Assembly (NCBI GenBank): GCA_019429385.1 | Contig: JAHYIS010000007.1 | Location: 5,909 to 69,908 of the forward strand | Origin: ANME-2 cluster archaeon | GTDB lineage: Archaea; Halobacteriota; Methanosarcinia; Methanosarcinales; Methanocomedenaceae | Reading direction: 5' to 3' | DNA: 64,000 bases | In this document: positions 1 through 29,434 of the stretch, piece by piece | How the letters are laid out: every line of letters starts with the position of its first letter | Position numbering within the stretch: position 1 is the stretch's first letter | Made by a program: the position numbers and the translations under genes | Notes under the pieces: model-generated | Seen by the model: only the letters and a program-made list of their open reading frames with translations | Told to the model about the DNA's origin: nothing | Database searches by the model: none

Positions 1-1
1 A

Positions 2-244
2 GTTTCCAACAACGTCCCTATAAAAAATAAACAATCACAAAATGATAGAGGTTTTTGTATTCGCTGTGGAAATGACTTAAAACTTAATCATGAAAAACCT
101 CTTTGTTACAATTGTTTCAACATTTGGAAAGAATATAGTAATCCAAATTATAAAGAGAAATTTTGCCATGCTTGTGGAACTAAATATAACAGTACTGTTG
201 AAAAACCTATTTGCATTGACTGCTATAAGAAATTGGCAAAATAA
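2..244 (+). CDS. C-terminal fragment of a protein with tandem CxxC zinc-ribbon motifs; the ORF enters from upstream of the window
   Basis: My translation of frame 2 runs open from position 2 to TAA at 242-244: ...GFCIRCGNDLKLNHEKPLCYNCFNIWKEYSNPNYKEKFCHACGTKYNSTVEKPICIDCYKKLAK. It has four CxxC pairs. It is absent from the ORF track because no start codon lies in the window. Confidence 0.5.
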   Translation, partial: VSNNVPIKNKQSQNDRGFCIRCGNDLKLNHEKPLCYNCFNIWKEYSNPNYKEKFCHACGTKYNSTVEKPICIDCYKKLAK

Positions 245-295
245 TAATTGGAACATATTCAATTTCTAAATCATGTTAACATAGCAGTATGATCT

Positions 296-505
296 TATCC
301 TCATTCCTCCCTTCTTCCCCTTTCCTGCTGCCCCTTTTGGTTCACTTATGCAGGGTGCCCCTCCCGCTCTGCTCAGCCTGCCCTTGTGGTGTGAGGGCTG
401 GCAGGCGCTTTTCGCTTATTCCTGCGGGCTTTGGGTGCGAAGTGGGGAGGGATGCCTGGGTGGAGGGTTGCAAGGTGGGGGGCTCGAAACTAAATTTCGA
501 ATTTA
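296..505 (+). repeat. GC-rich structured repeat, copy A (modules m1-m2-m3)
   Basis: Aligns by eye to copies at 2148, 3176 and 3917. Shared blocks include CACTT..AGGGTGCCCC, GCCTGCCCTTGTGGTG..GGCTGGCAGGCGCTTTTCG..TTCCTGCGGGCTTTGGGTGCGAAGTGGGGA and the G-rich tail GGGGGGCTCGA. Confidence 0.85.
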
Positions 506-629
506 CACTTCCAACCTTCGTTCTATTCACTACACTGATTTAAGTCTAAAACCAAGTATTTCGTATGATTTGGCACAGATCATCATTAAATGACAAATGG
601 TTTTCCTGAAAATAAAGGAGTTTGAAGTG

Positions 630-1310
630 TCAAAATTGTTTACAATAAAAATCAGAATCATCAAATTCCATATCATTAGCGATATTAATAAAACCCATTT
701 TGCATTTCTTAGCAAAATCTCTATCATCAAGGAAGAATTCAATTGGTTTTATATATTCAAGATTTGTCATCAATTCATGAAATATCCGTCCATCATTTGT
801 GTCCTTAAAATGAATATCAGCAAGTGATCTTTTCACAATATTGAGCCTTTTATGATTTAATAACAATATTTCAAAGCCAGGATGGATCTCTTCGATTTTG
901 AAAATGATCGAATTTGATAAATTTAATGACAGTTCTGATAAAAAATCAGGTAGATCGTCTATTTCATTGTCTTTAAAAAAAATTGAGATTTCATGATATA
1001 CCAGATTTAGAAAATTAGATAGCCCTGGTTTTGCAGCTTTTAAGTTTTTGAACTGCTCTATTAAAAAAGCCTGGGAATCCAATGTACTGATACTGGAGCT
1101 CTGATAAATATCAGGTAGAAATCTGATAATATCAACCATAACTTCATTTATTTTATTTCTCAGTACGTTATGTGATTCCATAATTGCTGAATGACATAAA
1201 TACAATTGTTCATTCCGTTTATCATCCATCAAAGCTATAGATGTTTCATGAAGTCGATCATTTGTATTAATTATTCCTAAAATGATATTAGTATCAAAAG
1301 AAAAATTCAT
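630..1310 (-). CDS. Hypothetical protein with PIN-like N- and C-terminal motifs split by a long helical insertion
   Basis: 226-aa ORF. The N-terminus MNFSFDTNIILGI resembles PIN strand 1 with its acidic residue. Later FKDTNDGRIFHEL and FFLDDRDFAKK resemble the distal PIN acidic motifs. Its start abuts the stop of the upstream ORF (1312). Confidence 0.45.
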   Translation of the reverse strand: MNFSFDTNIILGIINTNDRLHETSIALMDDKRNEQLYLCHSAIMESHNVLRNKINEVMVDIIRFLPDIYQSSSISTLDSQAFLIEQFKNLKAAKPGLSNFLNLVYHEISIFFKDNEIDDLPDFLSELSLNLSNSIIFKIEEIHPGFEILLLNHKRLNIVKRSLADIHFKDTNDGRIFHELMTNLEYIKPIEFFLDDRDFAKKCKMGFINIANDMEFDDSDFYCKQF

Positions 1311-1311
1311 T

Positions 1312-2031
1312 TTAAGCCTCTAAGACTTCAAAAACAGCATTATAATTTCTTGGAATTAATTCGTCATTAAAATTAGATAAGCTCAAATTAGTTACATCAT
1401 CCTGAAGATCTTGAAAAGAAATCTTTCCCCTGTGAAAAGCCTCGATTCTAAGCAATGAAACATTAATCATTATCCAGATATCAACATCATCTACCTTTTT
1501 TAAGGATTTCTTTATTAATTCATGAATGTTAAAAAAGTATTGATATAGGACTAATAACTGATTGGTATTTTCAGCCTTGTCCCATATTTTAAATTTAATC
1601 TCTTCCCTAATGGATGAAATTCTTCCATTTAGTTTTCTTAAAGTTATTCTAAAAAGTTCCGTTTGCTGTCGAGGTTCTAAGTTTGTTGAAAACGATTTTA
1701 GTTTCTTGAAACTTTCATTGAAATCCTGGAGAATAGCAATTTGATCTTCTAGTTTATTTTCGATAGTTCCTAAGTCGTCTTCATAAATATTAATTGAAAT
1801 AATATCTGTTAAAGCTTCCAATAATTTTTCTCTTGTTTCAAAGTCCAATTTCAAAATTTGGTCTAATTCCTTTTGAATCTGATAAAGTCTATGCATTGAT
1901 CTTAGATAATCAACTGTGCCAATTACTGGTCGCATAACTAATGTAATACTCTCAAATATATCGGATGAAAAAACATCCAGAATATAGTTAATAGATTTAA
2001 ATTGGCTGTTAGACGAATAATGAGCGTTCAT
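1312..2031 (-). CDS. Hypothetical, predicted all-helical/coiled-coil protein; first gene of a two-gene cassette
   Basis: 239-aa ORF in AT-rich DNA with heptad-like K/E/L-rich sequence. It is tightly coupled to the 630..1310 ORF. I recognise no family. Confidence 0.5.
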   Translation of the reverse strand: MNAHYSSNSQFKSINYILDVFSSDIFESITLVMRPVIGTVDYLRSMHRLYQIQKELDQILKLDFETREKLLEALTDIISINIYEDDLGTIENKLEDQIAILQDFNESFKKLKSFSTNLEPRQQTELFRITLRKLNGRISSIREEIKFKIWDKAENTNQLLVLYQYFFNIHELIKKSLKKVDDVDIWIMINVSLLRIEAFHRGKISFQDLQDDVTNLSLSNFNDELIPRNYNAVFEVLEA

Positions 2032-2147
2032 GATAATATAATCCTATTAATGACTTAAATCCATTTATAATCTAGCTTATTTAAGTTTATTGTAAAGCTT
2101 CAAATGATGCCTGAAATGAAAAATCATCATTAACATTGTTGATGTCT

Positions 2148-2343
2148 TCAGCCCCCATCCCTTCTTCAACTCTCATGCCGCCCCTTAGTCTTCACTTTAC
2201 AGGGTGCCCGTCCTGATCATCTCCGCTCGCCCTTGTGGTGAGGGGGGCTGGCAGGGGCTCGAATCGCATTAAAAAGCAGGCGTTTGGTGGGCTATTCAAC
2301 TGACCCTGCCACCGCTGCCCTTCAAGGCGGCATGGTGGCAGCC
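2148..2343 (+). repeat. GC-rich structured repeat, copy B (m1, truncated m2, m4 hairpin)
   Basis: Shares CTTCACTTTACAGGGTGCCC and the m4 block GCATTAAAAAGCAGGC.TTTGGTGGGCTATTCAACTGACCCTGCCACCGCTGCCCTTCA.GGCGGCATGGTGGCAGCC with copy D. Relative to D it has an internal deletion of ~75 nt. Confidence 0.85.
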
Positions 2344-2443
2344 AACATTATTGATACACAAATATCTGCATAATTGGAGTTGGAACATCTTTATAACATT
2401 TAGTGTTAATAGAATAATCAAAGTTAATCAAAATCTAACCAAG

Positions 2444-2665
2444 GTGATACTATTGGAAAGCATCGAAGCAATCAAAAAGCATTTGGATTACATGTCCCAT
2501 GAAATTGTTGAAATGAAGAAGCTAATAGTTGGCCTGGAATCAGATAAACAAAAATCCAATAGAGCATGGGATGATTTAATGAGTGCATCAGACCAAATAT
2601 CGGAAAAATGGATTGAAGTCTCAGCTGCAGATGAAATAAGATCACAACGAGAAAAGACGTGGTGA
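2444..2665 (+). CDS. Putative VapB-type antitoxin (start uncertain; GTG at 2444 proposed)
   Basis: Small ORF ending 5 nt before the PIN toxin gene. The track ORF (TTG 2351) reaches back to within a few nt of repeat copy B (which ends at 2343), so it is probably over-extended. Assignment rests on position only. Confidence 0.5.
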   Translation: MILLESIEAIKKHLDYMSHEIVEMKKLIVGLESDKQKSNRAWDDLMSASDQISEKWIEVSAADEIRSQREKTW

Positions 2666-2669
2666 ATCT

Positions 2670-3086
2670 GTGAATATTTGTCTGGATAGTTCTGTTATTG
2701 TAGCAGCATTAAGAAAGCAAGAAGTCCATCATGAAGCTGCTAGAAATTTATTGGAAAGTATTAAAGATGGAGAACATATTGCTATAGAACCTTACATTGT
2801 TTTAATTGAAATTGTTGCTGCCATAAAACGAAGAACAGGTTCAACAGAACTTGCCAACAGAGTGAAAAATGATTTTTTGGCTATAGACACCATAAATTTT
2901 ATGGACCTTGAATCAACCAGGGCAAGTCATGCATCTGAAATTGCAGTGAATCTTGGGGTAAGGGGAATGGATGCTATTGTTATACAAATAGCAAAAGAGT
3001 TTAATGTCCCCCTCATTACATTGGACAAAGAAATGATCGAAAAGGCTAAATCCTTCGTCGATATCAGTGCTGTAGAAGATTTGTGA
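2670..3086 (+). CDS. vapC: PIN-domain ribonuclease toxin VapC
   Basis: 138 aa. N-terminal ICLDSSVIVAAL is the PIN strand 1 Asp motif. It also has a mid-protein acidic residue and the C-terminal LITLDKEM motif. Confidence 0.8.
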   Translation: MNICLDSSVIVAALRKQEVHHEAARNLLESIKDGEHIAIEPYIVLIEIVAAIKRRTGSTELANRVKNDFLAIDTINFMDLESTRASHASEIAVNLGVRGMDAIVIQIAKEFNVPLITLDKEMIEKAKSFVDISAVEDL

Positions 3087-3175
3087 ATTAGCTACGATTT
3101 GATTAAAACTATTGGGGAGACACTAAATTTTAGCCCTCTCTGTGCATCTGTCATATCAATGATTATTATTTAACA

Positions 3176-3330
3176 TATCCATCCCCATCCTTTTTCAGTT
3201 CTCCTTCCGCCCCCTCGGTTTCACTTTTTAGGGTGCCCCCTCCCGCTCTGCTCAACCTGCCCTTGTGGTGATGGGTGCTGGCAGGCGCTTTTCGATTCTT
3301 CCTGCGGGCTTTTGGGTGCGAAGTCGGACT
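3176..3330 (+). repeat. GC-rich structured repeat, copy C (m1-m2 only)
   Basis: Near-identical to copy A across CCCTCCCGCTCTGCTCA.CCTGCCCTTGTGGTG...GCTGGCAGGCGCTTTTCG.TT.TTCCTGCGGGCTTT.GGGTGCGAAGT. Confidence 0.85.
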
Positions 3331-3414
3331 GATACTTAGGTGAGTGTTTGTAGGTATGGATTCTGTTGAAAACAATTATTAACAATTAAAGCATCCATTT
3401 AAATGAGGTAAAAT

Positions 3415-3600
3415 ATGGGTAATGTTAAGGACGAAGTAATAAAAATGATACATACAATGCCAAATGGTGTTTCAGTAGATGATATAATGGCTGAGTTATA
3501 TTTTCGTCAAAAAGTGGATGCTGGTTTATATGCTCTTGATAGAGATCAAGGTATTGAACACGAGATAGTAAAAGAAAAACTTACTAAATGGCTAGAATAA
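3415..3600 (+). CDS. Antitoxin of a RelE/ParE-type module (addiction-module component)
   Basis: 61 aa. It overlaps the toxin gene start by 13 nt. The pattern ...VDDIMAELYFRQKVDAGL...IEHEIVKEKLTKWL is typical of small antitoxins paired with ParE/RelE toxins. Confidence 0.7.
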   Translation: MGNVKDEVIKMIHTMPNGVSVDDIMAELYFRQKVDAGLYALDRDQGIEHEIVKEKLTKWLE

Positions 3601-3875
3601 TCTGGTCTCCTAATGCATCAGATGATTTGGAGTCTATCTGTGAATTTATTGCGATAGATTCTGAGTACTATGCTCGATCGTTCGCAAAAGGAATTATTAA
3701 GGCTATAGAAAGACTCATTGTATTTCCTGAATCAGGTAGAATCGTCCCGGAATATAATTTGAATAATATTCGTGAAATAATTTATCAGAATTATCGAATT
3801 GTCTATAGGATCAAGTCAGATATTATTGAAATTGTAACTATAGTCCATGGTGCAAGATTGTTAGACCACTTTTAA
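3588..3875 (+). CDS. RelE/ParE family type II toxin
   Basis: 95 aa. IWSPNASDDLESICEFIA...FPESGRIVPEY...IREIIYQNYRIVYRI..DIIEIVTIVHGARLL matches the RelE/ParE fold signature. Confidence 0.8.
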   Translation: MARIIWSPNASDDLESICEFIAIDSEYYARSFAKGIIKAIERLIVFPESGRIVPEYNLNNIREIIYQNYRIVYRIKSDIIEIVTIVHGARLLDHF

Positions 3876-3916
3876 GTTATCCTTTTTTGACTCGTTGAGC
3901 CAAATTTGTATATTTA

Positions 3917-4163
3917 CACACTCCTTCCGCCCCTTCATCTTCACTTTACAGGGTGCCCCACTCGTTATGTTCCTCCTGTCCCTGTGATAAGGGTGCTAGT
4001 AGGCGCTTTTCGATTCTTCCTGCGGACTTTGGGTGCGAAGTGGGGATGGATGCTTTTGTGGGGGGTTGGAGGGGGGGCTCGATTTGCATTAAAAAGCAGG
4101 CATTTGGTGGGCTATTCAACTGACCCTGCCACCGCTGCCCTTCAGGGCGGCATGGTGGCAGCC
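3917..4163 (+). repeat. GC-rich structured repeat, copy D (the most complete copy, m1-m2-m3-m4)
   Basis: Contains every block seen in copies A-C in the same order and ends in the 14-bp-class hairpin CTGCCACCGCTGCC/GGCGGCATGGTGGCAG followed by CCA. Confidence 0.85.
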
Positions 4164-4255
4164 AGCCGTGTTGATTCATATTGCCTGGGGTTTGGAGAGG
4201 CAAGAATATGAAACCGGATGCAGACTATGGATGTGATTCCTGTCGCACCTTGTTG

Positions 4256-4290
4256 GTTTACTCATACAGGGTACCCGACCTTTATCCGGC
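4256..4290 (+). repeat. Degenerate partial copy of repeat module m1 (core GGGTACCC) at the gltX-proximal edge of the array
   Basis: TTTACTCATACAGGGTACCCGACCT aligns with CTTCACTTTACAGGGTGCCCGTCCT of copy B. It lies ~90 nt from the gltX stop. Confidence 0.55.
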
Positions 4291-4380
4291 ATATTGGAAT
4301 AGGATATGTGGATTGAACATGTTTCCTTCAAAAAATGGCCAGATCACCGAACAAAAAGCAACGTATTCAGCATCCTCACA

Positions 4381-6075
4381 TTACTTGTGCGTAAAATAAG
4401 CCACAACCCCACCATCAGCACTATCTATCCTCACATACCCGTACCGTTCGAACTGCACCACCCTGTCAACCTCAGTGGCAATACCAGCCTCGCCAATCCC
4501 TTCAACCTCACCATCAGGCGTCAGCACCTTCACAGGTATCCCGTCCACGGGAGCCCAGTGGATAATGCGGCCGCCCCCCTTCTTTACGGTCTCGATATCA
4601 TGTCCTGCAAATTCGGCCGTGCCCTCGCCAGTGATCCTGATATTATACAGCTCTTTCAACCTGAACAGGTCACCCGGTTTTGCATTCCCGATATCCTGGT
4701 TGCATACCAGCACGCTGTGCTTCACCGTAATTTCCCTGGTACCCCTGGCCACAGTCGGGTGCAGCGAAGGTTTCACAACAGTGGGTTGTGTACCCGAGAG
4801 CTCAAGTTTCACCGGCTCCCACACAAAGAAATACCGGTTTGCGTCAGCATCGATCAACTTGCGGTTCTCGGCATACAGGTTATCCAGGCTCAGGCTCACA
4901 TCGGTCTCGCCCACACCCATATCAACGAAGAACTTGCGCAGAGCTTCCGGCCTGAACCCACGGCGGCGAATGGCCCGAAGCGTCGGCAGCCGAGGGTCAT
5001 CCCAGCCAGAATACTCGCCTGCCTCAATAGCCGCACGCAGTCCGCTGGTACTGAACTTGCCGAACTCGTGCATCTTCACACGGCCCCAGTGGGACGTGCG
5101 GGGATAGGTCCAGCCCAGGTAATCATAAACATACTTCTGCCGCAGCTCGCTGTCCATCAGGTCCTTGCCCCTGATGATATGGGTCATACCCAGCACGTGG
5201 TCTTCGATGGCCCCTTCAAAATCCAGCAAAGGCCAGACCACATACCTGTCACCCACTTCCGGGCGGGGATGCGGTGTCCTGATCACCCGGAATGCACCCC
5301 AGTCACGCAACGCGGGGTCCTTGTGCTTGATATCTGTCTTTATGCGCAACACCCCCGCCCGTTCCTCGTATTCACCAGCCAGCATCCGTTTCCATTCACG
5401 CAGGTGGTGTTCAGGCGCCGTGTCCCTGTGCGGGCATGCCTGTTTTGCATCCTTCAGCTGCTTGAACTCATCCTGGGTACAGGTACACACATAAGCATGC
5501 CCGGCCTTGATGAGCGTTTCTGCATATTCGTAATAGATAGGAAGCCTGTCCGATGCCATGACCACCTCATCCGGGTTGGCACCCAGCCATCTGCAATCTT
5601 CCAGGTACCAGTCATAGGCTTCCAGCATAGGCCGCTTGGTCACGGGGTCGGTGTCATCGAACCTGATAATGAACTTGCCCCCATATTTCTTCACGTACTC
5701 GCTATTGACCACGATACCACGGGTACTCCCAAGGGTGGGCGGACCGTTGGGGTTGGGCGCGAACCTCATAACTACGCCTCCTTTTGCATCCGGGAGTTCC
5801 TTTAACCCCTTATCCGGCTCCTTGCGCAGCGAAAGTTCAACTATTAACTCGGGAGCCATTGTTTCCAGTTCAGTCTGCCACTGTTCCAACGATCCGCTGG
5901 CAATATCTTTTAGTGCTTCGCCCAACAGGGGGCCTATTTCCTTAGCCCTCTGGCGCAGTTCGGGATGTTCCCCCATCAATTTGCCCATAACCGCACCCTG
6001 CTGCGGAGCTTTGCCGTATTTTACGGCATTCTGCAAAGCATATTTCTTAACGAGAATTTCAATATCTGCTTCCAT
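4381..6075 (-). CDS. gltX: Glutamyl-tRNA synthetase (archaeal type)
   Basis: Class I aaRS core: VMRFAPNPNGPPTLGSTRG (HIGH-region equivalent), FIIRFDDTDP, and KFSTSGLRAAIEAGEYSGWDDPRLPTLRAIRRRG. ATG at 6075 is preferred over the track start at 6102. Confidence 0.9.
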   Translation of the reverse strand: MEADIEILVKKYALQNAVKYGKAPQQGAVMGKLMGEHPELRQRAKEIGPLLGEALKDIASGSLEQWQTELETMAPELIVELSLRKEPDKGLKELPDAKGGVVMRFAPNPNGPPTLGSTRGIVVNSEYVKKYGGKFIIRFDDTDPVTKRPMLEAYDWYLEDCRWLGANPDEVVMASDRLPIYYEYAETLIKAGHAYVCTCTQDEFKQLKDAKQACPHRDTAPEHHLREWKRMLAGEYEERAGVLRIKTDIKHKDPALRDWGAFRVIRTPHPRPEVGDRYVVWPLLDFEGAIEDHVLGMTHIIRGKDLMDSELRQKYVYDYLGWTYPRTSHWGRVKMHEFGKFSTSGLRAAIEAGEYSGWDDPRLPTLRAIRRRGFRPEALRKFFVDMGVGETDVSLSLDNLYAENRKLIDADANRYFFVWEPVKLELSGTQPTVVKPSLHPTVARGTREITVKHSVLVCNQDIGNAKPGDLFRLKELYNIRITGEGTAEFAGHDIETVKKGGGRIIHWAPVDGIPVKVLTPDGEVEGIGEAGIATEVDRVVQFERYGYVRIDSADGGVVAYFTHK

Positions 6076-6119
6076 ATACCGTTCAAGATGTACTGGTAGC
6101 ACATAATTATTTGCAAAAA

Positions 6120-9056: not shown

Positions 9057-9216
9057 ATGGTCTATGATTTTGCTGGATGGTATTTAAGCATATTCAAACA
9101 TACCCATATTTTTATTATTAATACGAAATAGACATTGGCGACAGGTAATTACAATTGATTACATAAATTATAAATAGATGTAAGATGTGGTTACATTTTG
9201 AGTTGAGGTCTGAACC

Positions 9217-10068
9217 ATGAATAAGACATTACTGAAAATTCTCCTGGTTATGTTCTTTGCGGCACTTTTTTCTGGTTGTATTCAGCCCGATGCCGAAGAC
9301 GCGCCTGCAGGAACCATGATCCTTTCCACGACAACCTCTACATGTGATACCGGTTTGCTGGATGTATTGAATGCACGATTTGAAGAGGAAAATAATGTCA
9401 AAGTACTGACATTGTGCCAGGGTACAGGCAAGGCTATTGCCACAGGCGAGATGGGGGCAGCCGATGTGGTGCTGGTCCATGCACCGTCATCTGAACTGGA
9501 AGCCATAAAGCGGGGAAGTTTCATAGACCGCCAGTTTGTTATGTACAACTATTTCGTGATCATCGGCCCGGCCTCTGACCCGGCCAATGTGACGCACGCC
9601 ACATCTGCCACCGATGCTTTTACCAGGATTGCTGATGCACAGGCTCCGTTCATTTCCCGGGGCGACAATTCAGGCACCCACGCAAAGGAACTGGGACTGT
9701 GGAACGAAATACATATCACGCCGCAGGGTGTCTGGTACCAGTCAGTAGGTAAGGGCATGGGCGACACTATTATTACGGCTGATATCAAGCAGGGGTATAC
9801 CCTGTCGGACAGGGGCACCTACCTGGCCATGAAGGATAAAATTAACCTTGTGGCCCTCTTTGAGAACGACCAGGAATTCCTGTACAATCCATACCATGTC
9901 ATGGCAGTCAGTCCTGAAAAGTTCCCTGATGTGAACTACGGTATGGCACTGAACTATATTGAATTCCTTACCTCAGGCGAGGGGCAGGGTTTGATACAGG
10001 ACTTTGGATTGGAGGAATACGGCCAGCCGCTGTTCATACCTGCACACAATATAGATGAAGATGTTTGA
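9217..10068 (+). CDS. tupA: Tungstate ABC transporter substrate-binding lipoprotein TupA
   Basis: Lipobox-like FSGC signal and the TTTSTCDTGLLD anion-binding motif typical of TupA. It is followed by permease and ATPase genes. Confidence 0.8.
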   Translation: MNKTLLKILLVMFFAALFSGCIQPDAEDAPAGTMILSTTTSTCDTGLLDVLNARFEEENNVKVLTLCQGTGKAIATGEMGAADVVLVHAPSSELEAIKRGSFIDRQFVMYNYFVIIGPASDPANVTHATSATDAFTRIADAQAPFISRGDNSGTHAKELGLWNEIHITPQGVWYQSVGKGMGDTIITADIKQGYTLSDRGTYLAMKDKINLVALFENDQEFLYNPYHVMAVSPEKFPDVNYGMALNYIEFLTSGEGQGLIQDFGLEEYGQPLFIPAHNIDEDV

Positions 10069-19482: not shown

Positions 19483-19548
19483 CTATGTTACTTCCTATAA
19501 TATTCTAATATTGTATAATCCTATATATTATTGTCAAATGTATGTGGG

Positions 19549-19980
19549 CTACTTGATTGTAACATCATCTATATCATGATGTCGCTTAGCGAGTAACTTG
19601 ACTTTCTCAATGTTACGTCCATTCCGTCCTATGGCAAGACCTTTCTCTTTGGTGCTTACTTCTACATAAGCTATGCGTCTGTCACCTTTATAGCCAATCT
19701 TCACATCACTGACATTAGCAGGCTGCAGGAGACCTTTGATGAACGTCTTGGGGTCATCGCTGTATTCCACCACTTCAACATGGCGGCCGATGTTCTTAAC
19801 TACCCGATTGATATGTTCCCCATTTTTTCCGATGGCAATACCCATGTCACCTGGTTTTACGACAAAAATAACCCTGTTGTTCTCATCATCAACAAGACAA
19901 TCCCTGGCAGTAGCTCCGGTCGTATTTTCGAACAGGGCTATATACCGTATTCCATCAGTGTTGATCTTGACTTCGCTCAA
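19549..19980 (-). CDS. nusA: Archaeal NusA-like transcription termination factor (two KH domains)
   Basis: Two GxxG KH motifs (IGKNGEHI and IGRNGRNI). It sits in the conserved position. Confidence 0.9.
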   Translation of the reverse strand: MSEVKINTDGIRYIALFENTTGATARDCLVDDENNRVIFVVKPGDMGIAIGKNGEHINRVVKNIGRHVEVVEYSDDPKTFIKGLLQPANVSDVKIGYKGDRRIAYVEVSTKEKGLAIGRNGRNIEKVKLLAKRHHDIDDVTIK

Positions 19981-19994
19981 AAAAACCCCTTATC

Positions 19995-20294
19995 TTATGC
20001 TTTCAATACTGCCATAATATCTGATTCGCCCGACTCAACAACAGCCATTGCCACAATAGCAAAAGGCTTACTAAGCGTAGTTCCCAGTTCAACTCCCATT
20101 CCCGGGAAGTCAATGATCGGGACTTTCCCTGTTACCATCTTTCTCACTTCTTCAGGACAATTAGATGCAAGTACCACAGCCTTTGCCTGGTTACTTTCAA
20201 CTGCCTTTTGTGTCCGTTTGGAACCGATAATTACCGTTCCGGTCTGTACAGCACTCCTGAGTACTTTGTTAAGGTCTACTTCCATAAATATCAT
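19995..20294 (-). CDS. rpl30e: 50S ribosomal protein L30e
   Basis: ...VLRSAVQTGTVIIGSKRTQKAVESNQAKAVVLASNCPEE... It sits in the conserved position after rpoA''. Confidence 0.9.
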   Translation of the reverse strand: MIFMEVDLNKVLRSAVQTGTVIIGSKRTQKAVESNQAKAVVLASNCPEEVRKMVTGKVPIIDFPGMGVELGTTLSKPFAIVAMAVVESGESDIMAVLKA

Positions 20295-20331
20295 CTCATT
20301 TCAATTTTTTCTTCCTACAGGATTTCATCGT

Positions 20332-27866: not shown

Positions 27867-27972
27867 CGGGCTCGGAGGGATTTGAACCCCCGACCATCTG
27901 GTATCTTCCAATGCATGGGAATATCCATGCACCTTAAAAGCCAGGTGCTCTGCCTGTCTGAGCTACGAGCCC
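27867..27972 (-). tRNA. tRNA-Lys (anticodon UUU) with a 32-nt intron at the canonical 37/38 position (about 27903-27934); CCA not encoded
   Basis: Hand fold of the minus strand: GGGCTCG TA GCTC AGACAGGCA GAGC A CCTGG CTTTTA[intron]A CCAGA TGGTC GGGGG TTCAAAT CCCTC CGAGCCC G. The intron contains the hairpin GCATGG-ATATT-CCATGC. There is one C:A mismatch at 27:43. Confidence 0.85.
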
Positions 27973-28246
27973 TCTTAATTATAGCACCAGCTAATCTTCC
28001 ACCTAAACCTGTACGAAAATATTGCAATGAAAATTTTTTACAGTCCAATTCTTCACCGATTTGTATACTAGGGAGACTTTGCTGATGTGACGCGCTTGTA
28101 ATGTAATCATTACATTTAAAGGTTTCTTTCTAATCACTATATTTGTGTACCTTTTTACCCCACGTTACGTTCTATTAAGTTAATTGTATGGCTATCCGAC
28201 TTAAATCTTCCTTCTTCATTGATATCCGGTCTCTTGTTGTATATGA

Positions 28247-29434
28247 TCATTCACACGAGGGTACAGTTGGTTCATTAGGAGATGAAGATTCATCTGAAGG
28301 TACGCTTTGTTCATCTGGAGATGAAGATTCATCTGAAGGTACGCTTTGTTCATCTGGAGATGAAGATCCATCTGGTGGTATGCTTTGTTCGTTTGAAGAT
28401 GCCGATTGTCCTCCCTCAGCCTTGCCACCGGTCTCAAAGGCTTCCCTTTTTTTCTTTTTCGTATAATAGCTCAGCGGATGCCCTATCTCCCTGCACAGTA
28501 TATCCTTGCCCATGCAATTTCCATATGTGATCATAGTGGAACAGGATGGCGGTTTATAGGATGTACCCGTGCCACCCGCAATATGTTCAACCTGGTACCG
28601 TGTCATCTCTTCTTTGAAATCAGGCGATACGCCAAATAACTGGATTATCTGGTCCACTGAAAGTCCGATATTAAGTAAGAACGAAGTCAGTGCAAATCTG
28701 GCAGAATGTGCAAGATTTACACCGCCCTGGGCACCTGCCAATAAATGTTTTATGCAGGGTGGGAAACTTCCCGGTTCCATCTCACCGAAACCCTCCTCAC
28801 CCAGCTCTTTCTTGCTCTGTTCCAGGCAGGTCCTGACCTCGACAAGATATTCTTTAAGAGCCAGGCAGAAACTTTCTGGCACGGCAAGGGGCAGGGAGTT
28901 GAAAATACGTATCCTGATACCTTCCTGCAGTAAACGTGCATATTCTTCTTTTGTGATGTTGACATAACCTGACCTGAGCCTGCGGTTCACCAGTTTCCAG
29001 CTAAGTGCCCGCATCCCGGCAGCACCCCTGATATAATCGGTGAAATGTATCCGGAACCTTTTCTCGGCAATACTGGCATTAATGTTGAAATCCCCTCCAA
29101 TCTCCAGCAATGTTTCGTAATCGTCTTCTTTTTGCATTCTGGTATTGGCAAACTTAGCCTCTGCAAGAGCATACCGCCGTGTTAAAAAAGCATCATCTAT
29201 GCATGATACCAGTATCCTGGCGATGGGATAGGAGAGCAGTTCGACAACATCGGGTTTGTTGCTGTCCTCTTCGATCGCCCCGGTAATAGACTGGATGACC
29301 CTTGACCTGGCCCGGCTGCGAGGCATACCGTAAGCTTTGGATTTTATAATATCATCTATGGATGAGTCCATCTGGGCAACATATGCTGCTGCCTGGGTAA
29401 GAAATGGATAATATGATAGTTTTGCTACATCCAT
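28247..29434 (-). CDS. priL: DNA primase large subunit PriL with a repeat-derived acidic Ser/Pro-rich C-terminal tail
   Basis: The N-terminal and central regions are typical of PriL. The Fe-S domain cysteines are present (PPCIKHLL..., YKPPSCSTMITYGNCMGKDILC). The last ~55 aa are SSSPDEQSVPSDE-type repeats. Confidence 0.9.
   Translation of the reverse strand: MDVAKLSYYPFLTQAAAYVAQMDSSIDDIIKSKAYGMPRSRARSRVIQSITGAIEEDSNKPDVVELLSYPIARILVSCIDDAFLTRRYALAEAKFANTRMQKEDDYETLLEIGGDFNINASIAEKRFRIHFTDYIRGAAGMRALSWKLVNRRLRSGYVNITKEEYARLLQEGIRIRIFNSLPLAVPESFCLALKEYLVEVRTCLEQSKKELGEEGFGEMEPGSFPPCIKHLLAGAQGGVNLAHSARFALTSFLLNIGLSVDQIIQLFGVSPDFKEEMTRYQVEHIAGGTGTSYKPPSCSTMITYGNCMGKDILCREIGHPLSYYTKKKKREAFETGGKAEGGQSASSNEQSIPPDGSSSPDEQSVPSDESSSPDEQSVPSDESSSPNEPTVPSCE
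28250..28394. repeat. 39-bp tandem repeat, about 4 units (the two central units, 28278-28316 and 28317-28355, are 100% identical)
   Basis: GGAGATGAAGATTCATCTGAAGGTACGCTTTGTTCATCT occurs twice exactly, flanked by degenerate units. The repeat is in frame with priL on the minus strand. Confidence 0.95.

Follow-up and report, generated by a model that had tools for sequence, protein, structure and literature searches.

A co-oriented non-coding repeat between the toxin–antitoxin cassettes of ANME-2 archaea, possibly a DNA-level cassette-array scaffold

The array beside the GluRS gene

The ANME-2 archaea, uncultured organisms with a key role in methane oxidation, acquire and exchange accessory genes in ways that are poorly known. 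The first 4.3 kb of a 64,000-nt stretch of an ANME-2 contig (JAHYIS010000007.1; the whole stretch is called the window, and all positions refer to it unless a locus is named) contain an array in which four GC-rich copies of a non-coding repeat, A to D, all on the plus strand, alternate with small, AT-rich cassettes next to the GluRS gene, a core gene. From left to right, the array consists of a zinc-ribbon gene, copy A, a gene pair encoding proteins of 226 and 239 amino acids (aa), copy B, a PIN pair, copy C, an antitoxin/ParE pair, copy D, a conserved tail and a decayed fifth copy, after which the GluRS gene follows. The left end of the array lies outside the window, and cassette 0 is cut at the window start. 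The GC content is 29–38% at 1–4280 and 45–56% in the remainder of the window; the composition changes sharply at 4280/4281, where the last repeat copy ends and some 100 nt remain to the 3' end of the GluRS gene.

An earlier note on this DNA had divided the repeat into four blocks (m1 to m4) and read it as an element that folds on the plus strand, perhaps a novel non-coding RNA (ncRNA) or a structured recombination-site family. The repetition itself is far beyond chance, as nhmmer with copy D as query recovers copies A, B and C at E = 1e-19 to 3e-28, and a profile of the core matches the 64 kb at the four copies only (E ~1e-21 to 1e-23).

Distribution of the repeat

More than 40 homologous copies were found in 13 loci from independent metagenomes and metagenome-assembled genomes (MAGs) of ANME-2, Methanosarcinales and Methanosarcinaceae. 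The homologous loci, named by L numbers, were found by a genome-wide pattern scan and by profile searches; the 16-base pattern was loose and matched mostly by chance. L038 and L120 (ANME-2 MAGs), L099 (a Methanosarcinales MAG) and L066 were recovered by profile search and by eye, L121–L126 are metagenome contigs, and L131, L132, L136 and L137 were reached via homologues of the cassette protein, the last two being Methanosarcinaceae MAGs. L066 (JAHYJP010000195.1) is filed under a Bacteroidales MAG but is probably mis-binned, since it contains the repeat array of the archaea and shares its upstream gene with L123.

Within each locus the repeat copies are co-oriented, and this was seen in every one of 14 loci. 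All copies stand either between AT-rich accessory cassettes or at the borders between an array and core genes. No match to the repeat was found in phage and plasmid collections or with IMG/VR patterns, and a literature search on the conserved motifs and on such arrays found no description in the library covered. The repeat is real and previously undescribed. It marks a recurrent, recognisable architecture of ANME-2 toxin–antitoxin and defence islands, and its conserved blocks provide a simple sequence handle for finding such arrays and also account for the assembly breaks there.

Anatomy of the repeat unit

Alignment of the copies defines a unit of about 190 nt with the fixed block order C5-C3-X-P. 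C5 is a C/T-rich leader with an invariant AGGGTGCCC; it reads leader, then TTCACTTnnCAGGGTGCCC, then ..CTGCTCCGCC. C3 is an imperfect palindrome, CGCCTGCC-N17-GGCAGGCG, which carries an invariant CTTGTGGTG in its middle, ends in GGCAGGCGCTTTTCG and is followed by CTTTTCG. The G/T-rich block X (ATTCYTKCGGSGG..GGGTGCGAAGTGGGGATGGATGCTTGGGTGG..) corresponds to m2b plus m3 of the earlier division. P is a 30-nt AT-rich block (GAAATATAATT..GTTATTTAATTAATGAAC) that belongs to the unit in most related arrays (11 copies from six loci), in every case directly after X and in unit orientation; it reads like an archaeal promoter with a B-recognition element (BRE) and a TATA box. The window copies carry only decayed versions of P. 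The T-run that follows the GC-rich palindrome is among the best-conserved parts of the unit.

Whole units are arranged in direct tandem, without intervening cassettes and with a period of about 187 nt, in L136 (616–1000) and L137 (9550–9900); this lineage keeps m3 well and lacks the C/T-rich leader. Units of the window are 77–81% identical to those of L136/L137, compared with 74% for the adjoining protein-coding block. Judged from these alignments, the units are as conserved between lineages as the neighbouring coding DNA.

Sequence identity between units is 75.4% within an array and 75.5% between arrays, and 19 of 22 copies have their nearest relative in a different locus. The equal identity within and between arrays indicates that the arrays were assembled from a shared pool and not by local duplication; local tandem duplication and concerted evolution are ruled out on the same ground.

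Copy B equals copy D minus one internal deletion between G runs (GGCAGG|...|GGCTCGA). Similar variants are L066a, which reads GCGATGTGGGG|GGCTCGA, and L123d, in which CTCCGCCT|P takes the place of the normal X end CTCCGGCT|P. By their junctions, the "modular" subsets are deletion variants between short G/C-rich direct repeats, in line with the proposal that the blocks were rearranged by deletions or recombination. The modular description stands in general, and only copy C was misjudged as consisting of m1 and m2: it contains a decayed m3, since 3231–3356 aligns with positions 2–125 of the 130 positions of the unit profile (E = 3e-27).

Table 1. Features of the array and of its right-hand border (window positions in nt).
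Feature	Position	Strand	Details
Cassette 0	2–244	+	Gene for a small double-zinc-ribbon protein; Pfam DZR/DZR_2, E ~1e-4, under the curated cutoff
Copy A	296–505	+	C5 leader plus TTCACTTATGCAGGGTGCCCC, ~300–376; C3 CCTGCC..GGCAGGCGCTTTTCG, 377–414
Copy A, 3' part		+	G/T-rich X (m2b plus m3), 415–487; decayed promoter-like AT block GAAACTAAATTTCGAATTTA, 486–505
Cassette 1	603–2150	−	Genes of 226 aa (630–1310) and 239 aa (1312–2031); block also present in four other arrays
Copy B	2151–2358	+	Leader and core to GGCAGG, 2151–2255; deletion junction 2255|2256
Copy B, 3' part		+	m4 GGCTCGAATCGCATTAAAAAGCAGGC.., 2256–2305; hairpin, 2306–2341; short conserved flank to 2358
Cassette 2	2351–3086	+	Small upstream ORF (open reading frame) and PIN-domain (VapC-type) toxin gene, 2670–3086; Pfam PIN, E = 7e-17
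Copy C	3183–3391	+	Leader and core, 3183–3293; decayed X, 3294–3365
Copy C, promoter-like block	3366–3391	+	TTGAAAACAATTATTAACAATTAAAG, common to L099
Cassette 3	3415–3875	+	61-aa putative antitoxin, 3415–3600; ParE-family toxin, 3588–3875, Pfam ParE_toxin, E = 9e-20
Copy D, unit part	3917–4125	+	Shortened leader and TTCACTTTACAGGGTGCCCC, 3917–3974; C3, 3975–4012; X, 4013–4082; m4, 4083–4125
Conserved hairpin	4126–4161	none	CTGCCACCGCTGCC-CTTCAG-GGCGGCATGGTGGCAG
Tail	4162–4243	+	Holds a second, decayed ..GAAAC-(C)AGGGTGCC.. motif; collinear homology of 80–83% to L038, L123, L125 and L099; copy D including the tail, 3917–4243
Fifth copy of leader/m1 block	4239–4280	+	Degenerate, CCTGTCGCACC..TTTACTCATACAGGGTACCCGACC; marks the array end
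GluRS gene	4381–6102	−	Identified by Pfam; stop codon ~100 nt from the fifth copy

The m4 hairpin and its tail

The hairpin of block m4 has a lower stem CTGCCACC/GGTGGCAG, an upper stem GCTGCCC/GGGCGGC with a T·G and an AT bulge, and the loop TTCA. In its 12 homologous copies, 91% of the alignment cells are paired; the lower stem is nearly invariant, the upper stem exists in two types, the loops vary freely, and the mismatch and the bulge are constant. Its predicted DNA folding energies are −15.8 kcal/mol on the plus strand and −15.4 on the minus strand (z = −2.1 and −1.6). The m4 hairpin is a genuine conserved inverted repeat that, as DNA, folds equally well on either strand, and it shows no covariation because it is too invariant. 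Type-I hairpins are flanked by ATTCAAC ... GTTGATT; in this flank helix 65% of cells are paired, and it is absent from type-II hairpins.

The tail follows the type-I hairpin in seven of eight copies, with copy B as the exception. Together with its tail, the hairpin takes the slot after X or P, like a cassette without an ORF, and it follows less than a third of the units (12 hairpins versus more than 40 units). Nine of the 12 copies are followed by another C5, either intact or decayed, and in copy B of the window, L066b and L122b a cassette follows directly. The element had been thought to end at 4163; the conserved sequence runs on to about 4243 and into the fifth copy, as seen in the collinear homologues L125, L099, L066, L123 and L038. 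The fifth copy occupies the place where intact units follow the tail in L125, L099 and L066. The trinucleotide CCA after the hairpin is correct for copy D and is not conserved, being TCA in L038 and CTA in L122. An integration target resembling tRNA or transfer-messenger RNA (tmRNA) was rejected: neither ARAGORN nor Rfam gives a match on the repeat, and CCA is replaced in the homologues.

Tests for a folded RNA and for a protein

The proposed fold had been derived from a stem whose coordinates are exact, namely CCTGCC 377–382/GGCAGG 400–405 in copy A and CCTGT 3975–3979/AGTAGG 3998–4003 in copy D, and the hairpin at 4126–4161 was likewise placed correctly. The fold as such is not borne out by the aligned copies. 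RNAalifold gives a covariation term of −0.05 kcal/mol for 16 sequences and of −0.2 for a set of 15 that takes in the distant lineage (mean identity 72%), and structure conservation indices of 0.24 (plus strand) and 0.23 (minus strand) were obtained. Single copies fold like their dinucleotide shuffles (copy D, z = −0.9 on the plus and +0.8 on the minus strand; copy A, +0.3 and −0.3). The CCTGCC/GGCAGG stem is 86% paired, and every measure for it equals the shuffle control; at alignment columns 125–132/155–164 it reaches a covariation score of 0.161, compared with 0.165 in shuffles. Thus no significant covariation appears among the 16–22 aligned copies, the outcome that the earlier note had itself named as speaking against its reading.

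The choice of the plus strand had been argued from G·U pairs in copy D alone. In eight of 22 copies the central pair of this stem is unpaired on the plus strand, where GCCCGCC stands opposite GGCAGGC; the resulting C·A would be a G·U wobble on the minus strand only. GGTAGG in two copies (D and L125a2) keeps the plus-strand G·U. With plus-strand wobbles in some copies and minus-strand wobbles in others, neither strand is favoured. The suggested pairing of the leader with m3 does not fit L136/L137, where m3 is kept without a leader.

In agreement with the earlier failure to assign a known RNA family, the repeat has no Rfam match. The only match at the gathering score in the window is a tRNA (27867–27972), and at E ≤ 10 the region 1–4600 gives chance snoRNA-like matches only, none of them on the repeat. 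ARAGORN finds no tRNA or tmRNA at the repeat. In 11 related loci, the gathering-score search returned only a fragment of a group II intron far from the arrays (L137 41–150, minus strand; domains D1–D4, RF02012, 57 bits), which lies several kb from the array and is seemingly unrelated. The repeat does not behave like a folded RNA.

The view that the repeat is non-coding is upheld. Variability by codon position, measured as entropy, is flat (0.56/0.39/0.42), single-base indels between copies break every frame in several copies, and a search of 5.8 billion proteins with the 84-aa open frame of copy A gave no match, which rules out a protein-coding sequence. A small leaderless ORF (ATG in ..AATGAAAC.., motif CSACPCG) is ruled out by the codon-position entropy and the broken frames. 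A G-quadruplex in the G-rich block was rejected as well, because the canonical motif occurs in only two of 15 copies.

Cassettes, reshuffling and breakpoints

Across the arrays, the cassettes contain toxin–antitoxin pairs (PIN, ParE, HicAB, MNT/HepT and DUF3368/UPF0175), a DNA methylase and a surface protein, and type I restriction-modification (R-M) genes are often found alongside. About 70% of the cassette genes are oriented as the units, according to a hand count. The core genes that adjoin the arrays vary by contig and include those for GluRS, GcvH-like and TfuA-like proteins and a pyridoxal-phosphate (PLP) enzyme. The candidate of a conserved native gene beside GluRS was discarded: in relatives with 87% GluRS identity, the locus is without the element and other neighbours flank it.

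Some cassettes have no ORF and consist of direct-repeat or hairpin inserts. After the promoter-like block, they are located in L123 (975–885, 90–1 and 1420–1380), L120 (5797–5830), L099 (3160–3090 and 3790–3720), and L038 (208–340) together with L123 (366–255). Their kinds are (GTTCATCYGYG)n direct repeats, a long hairpin (CGCAAAG)3...(CTTTGCG)3, and a GTTCGT-repeat segment that two unrelated contigs have in common. Such inserts may be genes for small RNAs or arrays that bind proteins.

The 226/239-aa pair of cassette 1 has no match in Pfam, NCBIfam or PADLOC. Among its 75 homologues, those with a source taxon name are all Methanosarcinales, except P0122, which is filed under Anaerovoracaceae. 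In L133–L135 the pair is located directly beside a type I R-M operon, and it is a candidate for an uncharacterised toxin–antitoxin or defence pair. In L133, two copies of a SAM_HAT-family gene (9099–9926 and 19546–20325) flank the gene pair together with the R-M operon; this lineage is without the repeat, which suggests a different insertion route for the same island.

The DNA block with the gene pair is 90–92% identical to L099, L131 and L132, where its neighbours differ, and 74% identical to L136/L137, where it is inverted relative to the units (window 649–2095 in reverse, units forward). Its homology to L099 and L132 (90%) extends into copy B and is lost no farther than about 15 nt from GGCAGG (2245–2259), where copy B also has its deletion junction. 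In L136/L137, the gene pair abuts |CAGGCGC, several other junctions are found at CTCCGCC, the other arm of the palindrome, and several cassettes are each preceded by a 5'-half copy ending in CTCCGCC(C)GGC. Of four close relatives, three show the end of homology at the C3 block. The homology to L131 already breaks off at 2106, where L131 has an insertion of about 135 nt (~5200–5330) with terminal inverted repeats GAGATTGTCG/CGACAATCTC and flanks CTTACCTT/CTCACCTT. This insertion is absent from the same place in L132, L099 and the window, and looks like a miniature inverted-repeat transposable element (MITE).

The 35 kb beyond the GluRS gene contain core genes, including those for an ABC transporter, EF-1a, EF-2, S7, RNA polymerase subunits, PriL, PCNA and CPSase. 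The tRNA gene in this region (27867–27972, minus strand) has a 33-nt intron and no encoded CCA; Rfam scores it at 54.4 bits, and it is missed by ARAGORN. It is the clearest indication that the organism is an archaeon, and the relatives of GluRS together with the homologous repeat loci point to ANME-2/Methanosarcinales. A PriL-like primase gene (28247–29434, minus strand) has a 39-nt tandem repeat of about four copies at its 3' end (28238–28393), which encodes a serine-rich and acidic 13-aa repeat (..SSSPDEQSVPSDE..) at the C-terminus of the protein.

A proposed scaffold for cassette arrays

Invariant blocks without covarying stems, strict co-orientation, the position at every cassette boundary, and breakpoints within the unit along with reshuffled and inverted cassettes are best accommodated if the repeat acts at the level of DNA, as a scaffold of cassette arrays and a unit of recombination with additional signals for transcription, a tentative reading to which a probability of about 0.45 is given. 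The conserved blocks would then provide the same recombination substrate at every cassette boundary, and this substrate might act via homology or as a set of sites for a recombinase encoded elsewhere. This would allow arrays and genomes to gain, lose or invert cassettes and to reshuffle them with one another. The "modular" variants would result from deletions caused by the short G/C-rich direct repeats of the unit. At each boundary, transcription would probably begin at the P block and end at the T-run. Of the two options that the earlier note had offered, the recombination-site half is closer to the genomic context, while the RNA half is not sustained.

Several points weigh against such a scaffold. 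No integrase, recombinase or transposase gene is present among the 30 window ORFs scanned (4.3–40 kb; the array's left end lies outside) or in the gene tables around the related arrays. The boundaries lack the base precision of integron cassettes: on its far side, the gene-pair block stops at 603, 640 or 729 within AT-rich sequence. Neither an excised circle nor a clean presence/absence pair was seen among the compared contigs. The promoter-like block, with its strong conservation, and the T-run would suit a transcribed unit at least as well as a recombination site. Finally, activity is deduced from the comparative anatomy of metagenome contigs, many of which end inside arrays.

A more far-reaching version of the scaffold would be a cassette-capture platform of ANME-2 and Methanosarcinaceae, analogous to integrons and unrelated to them. 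Its unit would combine a docking or recombination site with an outward promoter and a terminator and would be the substrate of host recombination or of a recombinase encoded elsewhere; toxin–antitoxin, defence and small-RNA cassettes would move in and out of the slots between units. This version is speculative and on balance unlikely. If the units are recombination sites, Archaea would possess an integrase-independent counterpart of integrons or one with a new recombinase; if they are transcribed, they would represent a new small-RNA family tied to toxin–antitoxin cassettes.

The latter possibility, that each unit is a small ncRNA gene which acts via its primary sequence and not via a conserved fold, is the main rival of the scaffold, at a rather low probability. 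P would serve as promoter for an RNA of about 70–115 nt that begins with the C/T-rich leader, runs from just after P to GGCAGGCGCUUUU and terminates at the palindrome and T-run (GGCAGGCGCTTTTCG); its C/U-rich leader might, for example, pair with the G-rich ribosome-binding sites of the cassette toxin mRNAs, or the RNA might bind a protein. P is conserved and directional and lies at a fixed distance before the leader or core, the T-run after the GC-rich palindrome belongs to the best-conserved segments, the tandem units without cassettes resemble tandem small genes, the unit is conserved like the coding DNA next to it, and most cassette genes share its direction. However, there is no covariation and the structure conservation index is low, the T-run consists of four Ts only, the window copies lack a canonical P block, and L136/L137 lack the leader, which would be the active part of the RNA. 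A small RNA also leaves unexplained why X is conserved and why units stand at cassette boundaries and breakpoints. The folded RNA or single-stranded DNA of the earlier note fares worse and is the least probable explanation of all: a single-copy fold of D does pair the leader with m3 through many G·U pairs, D and L125a2 do keep their plus-strand wobble, and the consensus energy is better than that of column shuffles, but the stem statistics, the C·A copies, the conservation of m3 without the leader and the missing Rfam match all speak against it.

Explanations based on mobile elements account for other parts of the pattern. The units could be scars of tandem site-specific integrations, in which small elements each brought their own attachment (att) copy and left a hybrid att at every junction, with the integrase encoded elsewhere or lost, similar to accretion in integrons or in the staphylococcal cassette chromosome (SCC). 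Every junction and both ends of the arrays carry direct, co-oriented repeats, which agrees with this, as does the finding that the closest relative of each copy lies in another array, expected if a cassette brought its own site; moreover, the gene-pair block travels with the unit core on one side, with homology ending near GGCAGG, and the L136/L137 cassettes follow 5'-half copies. Yet no integrase lies beside any array, the junctions vary by lineage (following P or X in that of the window, but lying within the palindrome in L136/L137), one and the same gene pair is found in both orientations relative to the units, and cassette-free tandem units exist. A native unoccupied site was not found either, the relatives' GluRS loci being without the element, and such accretion is considered improbable. 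Still lower is the likelihood of a canonical integron with m4 hairpins as attC, of ends of the insertion sequence (IS) type IS200/IS605 with omega-RNA, or of a selfish repeat of the MITE, REP or BOX type, all of which appear very unlikely. Bulge and mismatch make the hairpin similar to attC sites or IS608 ends, its type-I flanks resemble R''/R' boxes, and the modular make-up recalls pneumococcal BOX elements. Against this, the box-like helix is incompletely paired, is absent from type-II hairpins and, like the hairpin itself, is restricted to a minority of units; no IntI, TnpA or TnpB gene was found in the scanned window ORFs or the related-locus gene tables; and Rfam gives no match. MITEs are contradicted by the lack of terminal inverted repeats or target duplications at the array borders, and selfish repeats by copies that are never dispersed or inverted and do not occur in the other 60 kb of the window.

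Comparison with known systems

Integron cassette arrays have also been reported in Archaea (PMC9668308). The arrays described here share several properties with integrons, with clusters of attC sites lacking integron-integrases (CALINs) and with the Vibrio cholerae repeat (VCR) arrays of Vibrio: the cassettes are small, compositionally foreign and rich in toxin–antitoxin genes, one co-oriented repeat marks each cassette boundary, some cassettes have no ORF, their order is reshuffled between relatives, and assemblies break within arrays. The unit, however, is about 190 nt long, compared with 57–141 nt for attC, and is not a simple imperfect palindrome. Its m1–m3 part lacks conserved R''/R' boxes (RYYYAAC/GTTRRRY), and no IntI gene is seen. 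Boundaries without base precision, cassette-free tandem units, a promoter-like block and a cassette present in both orientations are further differences from integrons. The attC anatomy was rejected as a description of every boundary: the unit has no boxes, the hairpin flanks are not conserved, and the hairpin accompanies a minority of units.

Methanosarcinales are rich in IS200/IS605-type elements. The ends of such elements and the omega-RNA of TnpB resemble the present arrays in having a GC-rich imperfect hairpin with a bulge and in strict co-orientation, but no tnpA (Y1 HUH) or tnpB gene lies beside any copy, left and right ends are not paired, and one hairpin type occurs at a minority of units. 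In systems of tandem accretion, such as SCC at rlmH or islands at tRNA and tmRNA genes, direct repeats also flank the inserted segments, which accumulate beside a core gene. In the present arrays, the repeat belongs to no tRNA, tmRNA or host gene and exceeds typical att repeats about tenfold in length, no integrase was found, and the arrays lie beside many different core genes.

The BOX A/B/C elements, the enterobacterial repetitive intergenic consensus (ERIC) and the repetitive extragenic palindromes (REP) with their bacterial interspersed mosaic elements (BIME) are likewise non-coding, combine modules in varied subsets, contain inverted repeats, are limited to one lineage and have no enzyme gene of their own. 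These repeats are dispersed, occur in both orientations and are not tied to cassettes, whereas the present units form co-oriented arrays in accessory islands only. Without the defining features of either, the arrangement is similar to integrons and CALINs in its outcome and to BOX elements in its modularity.

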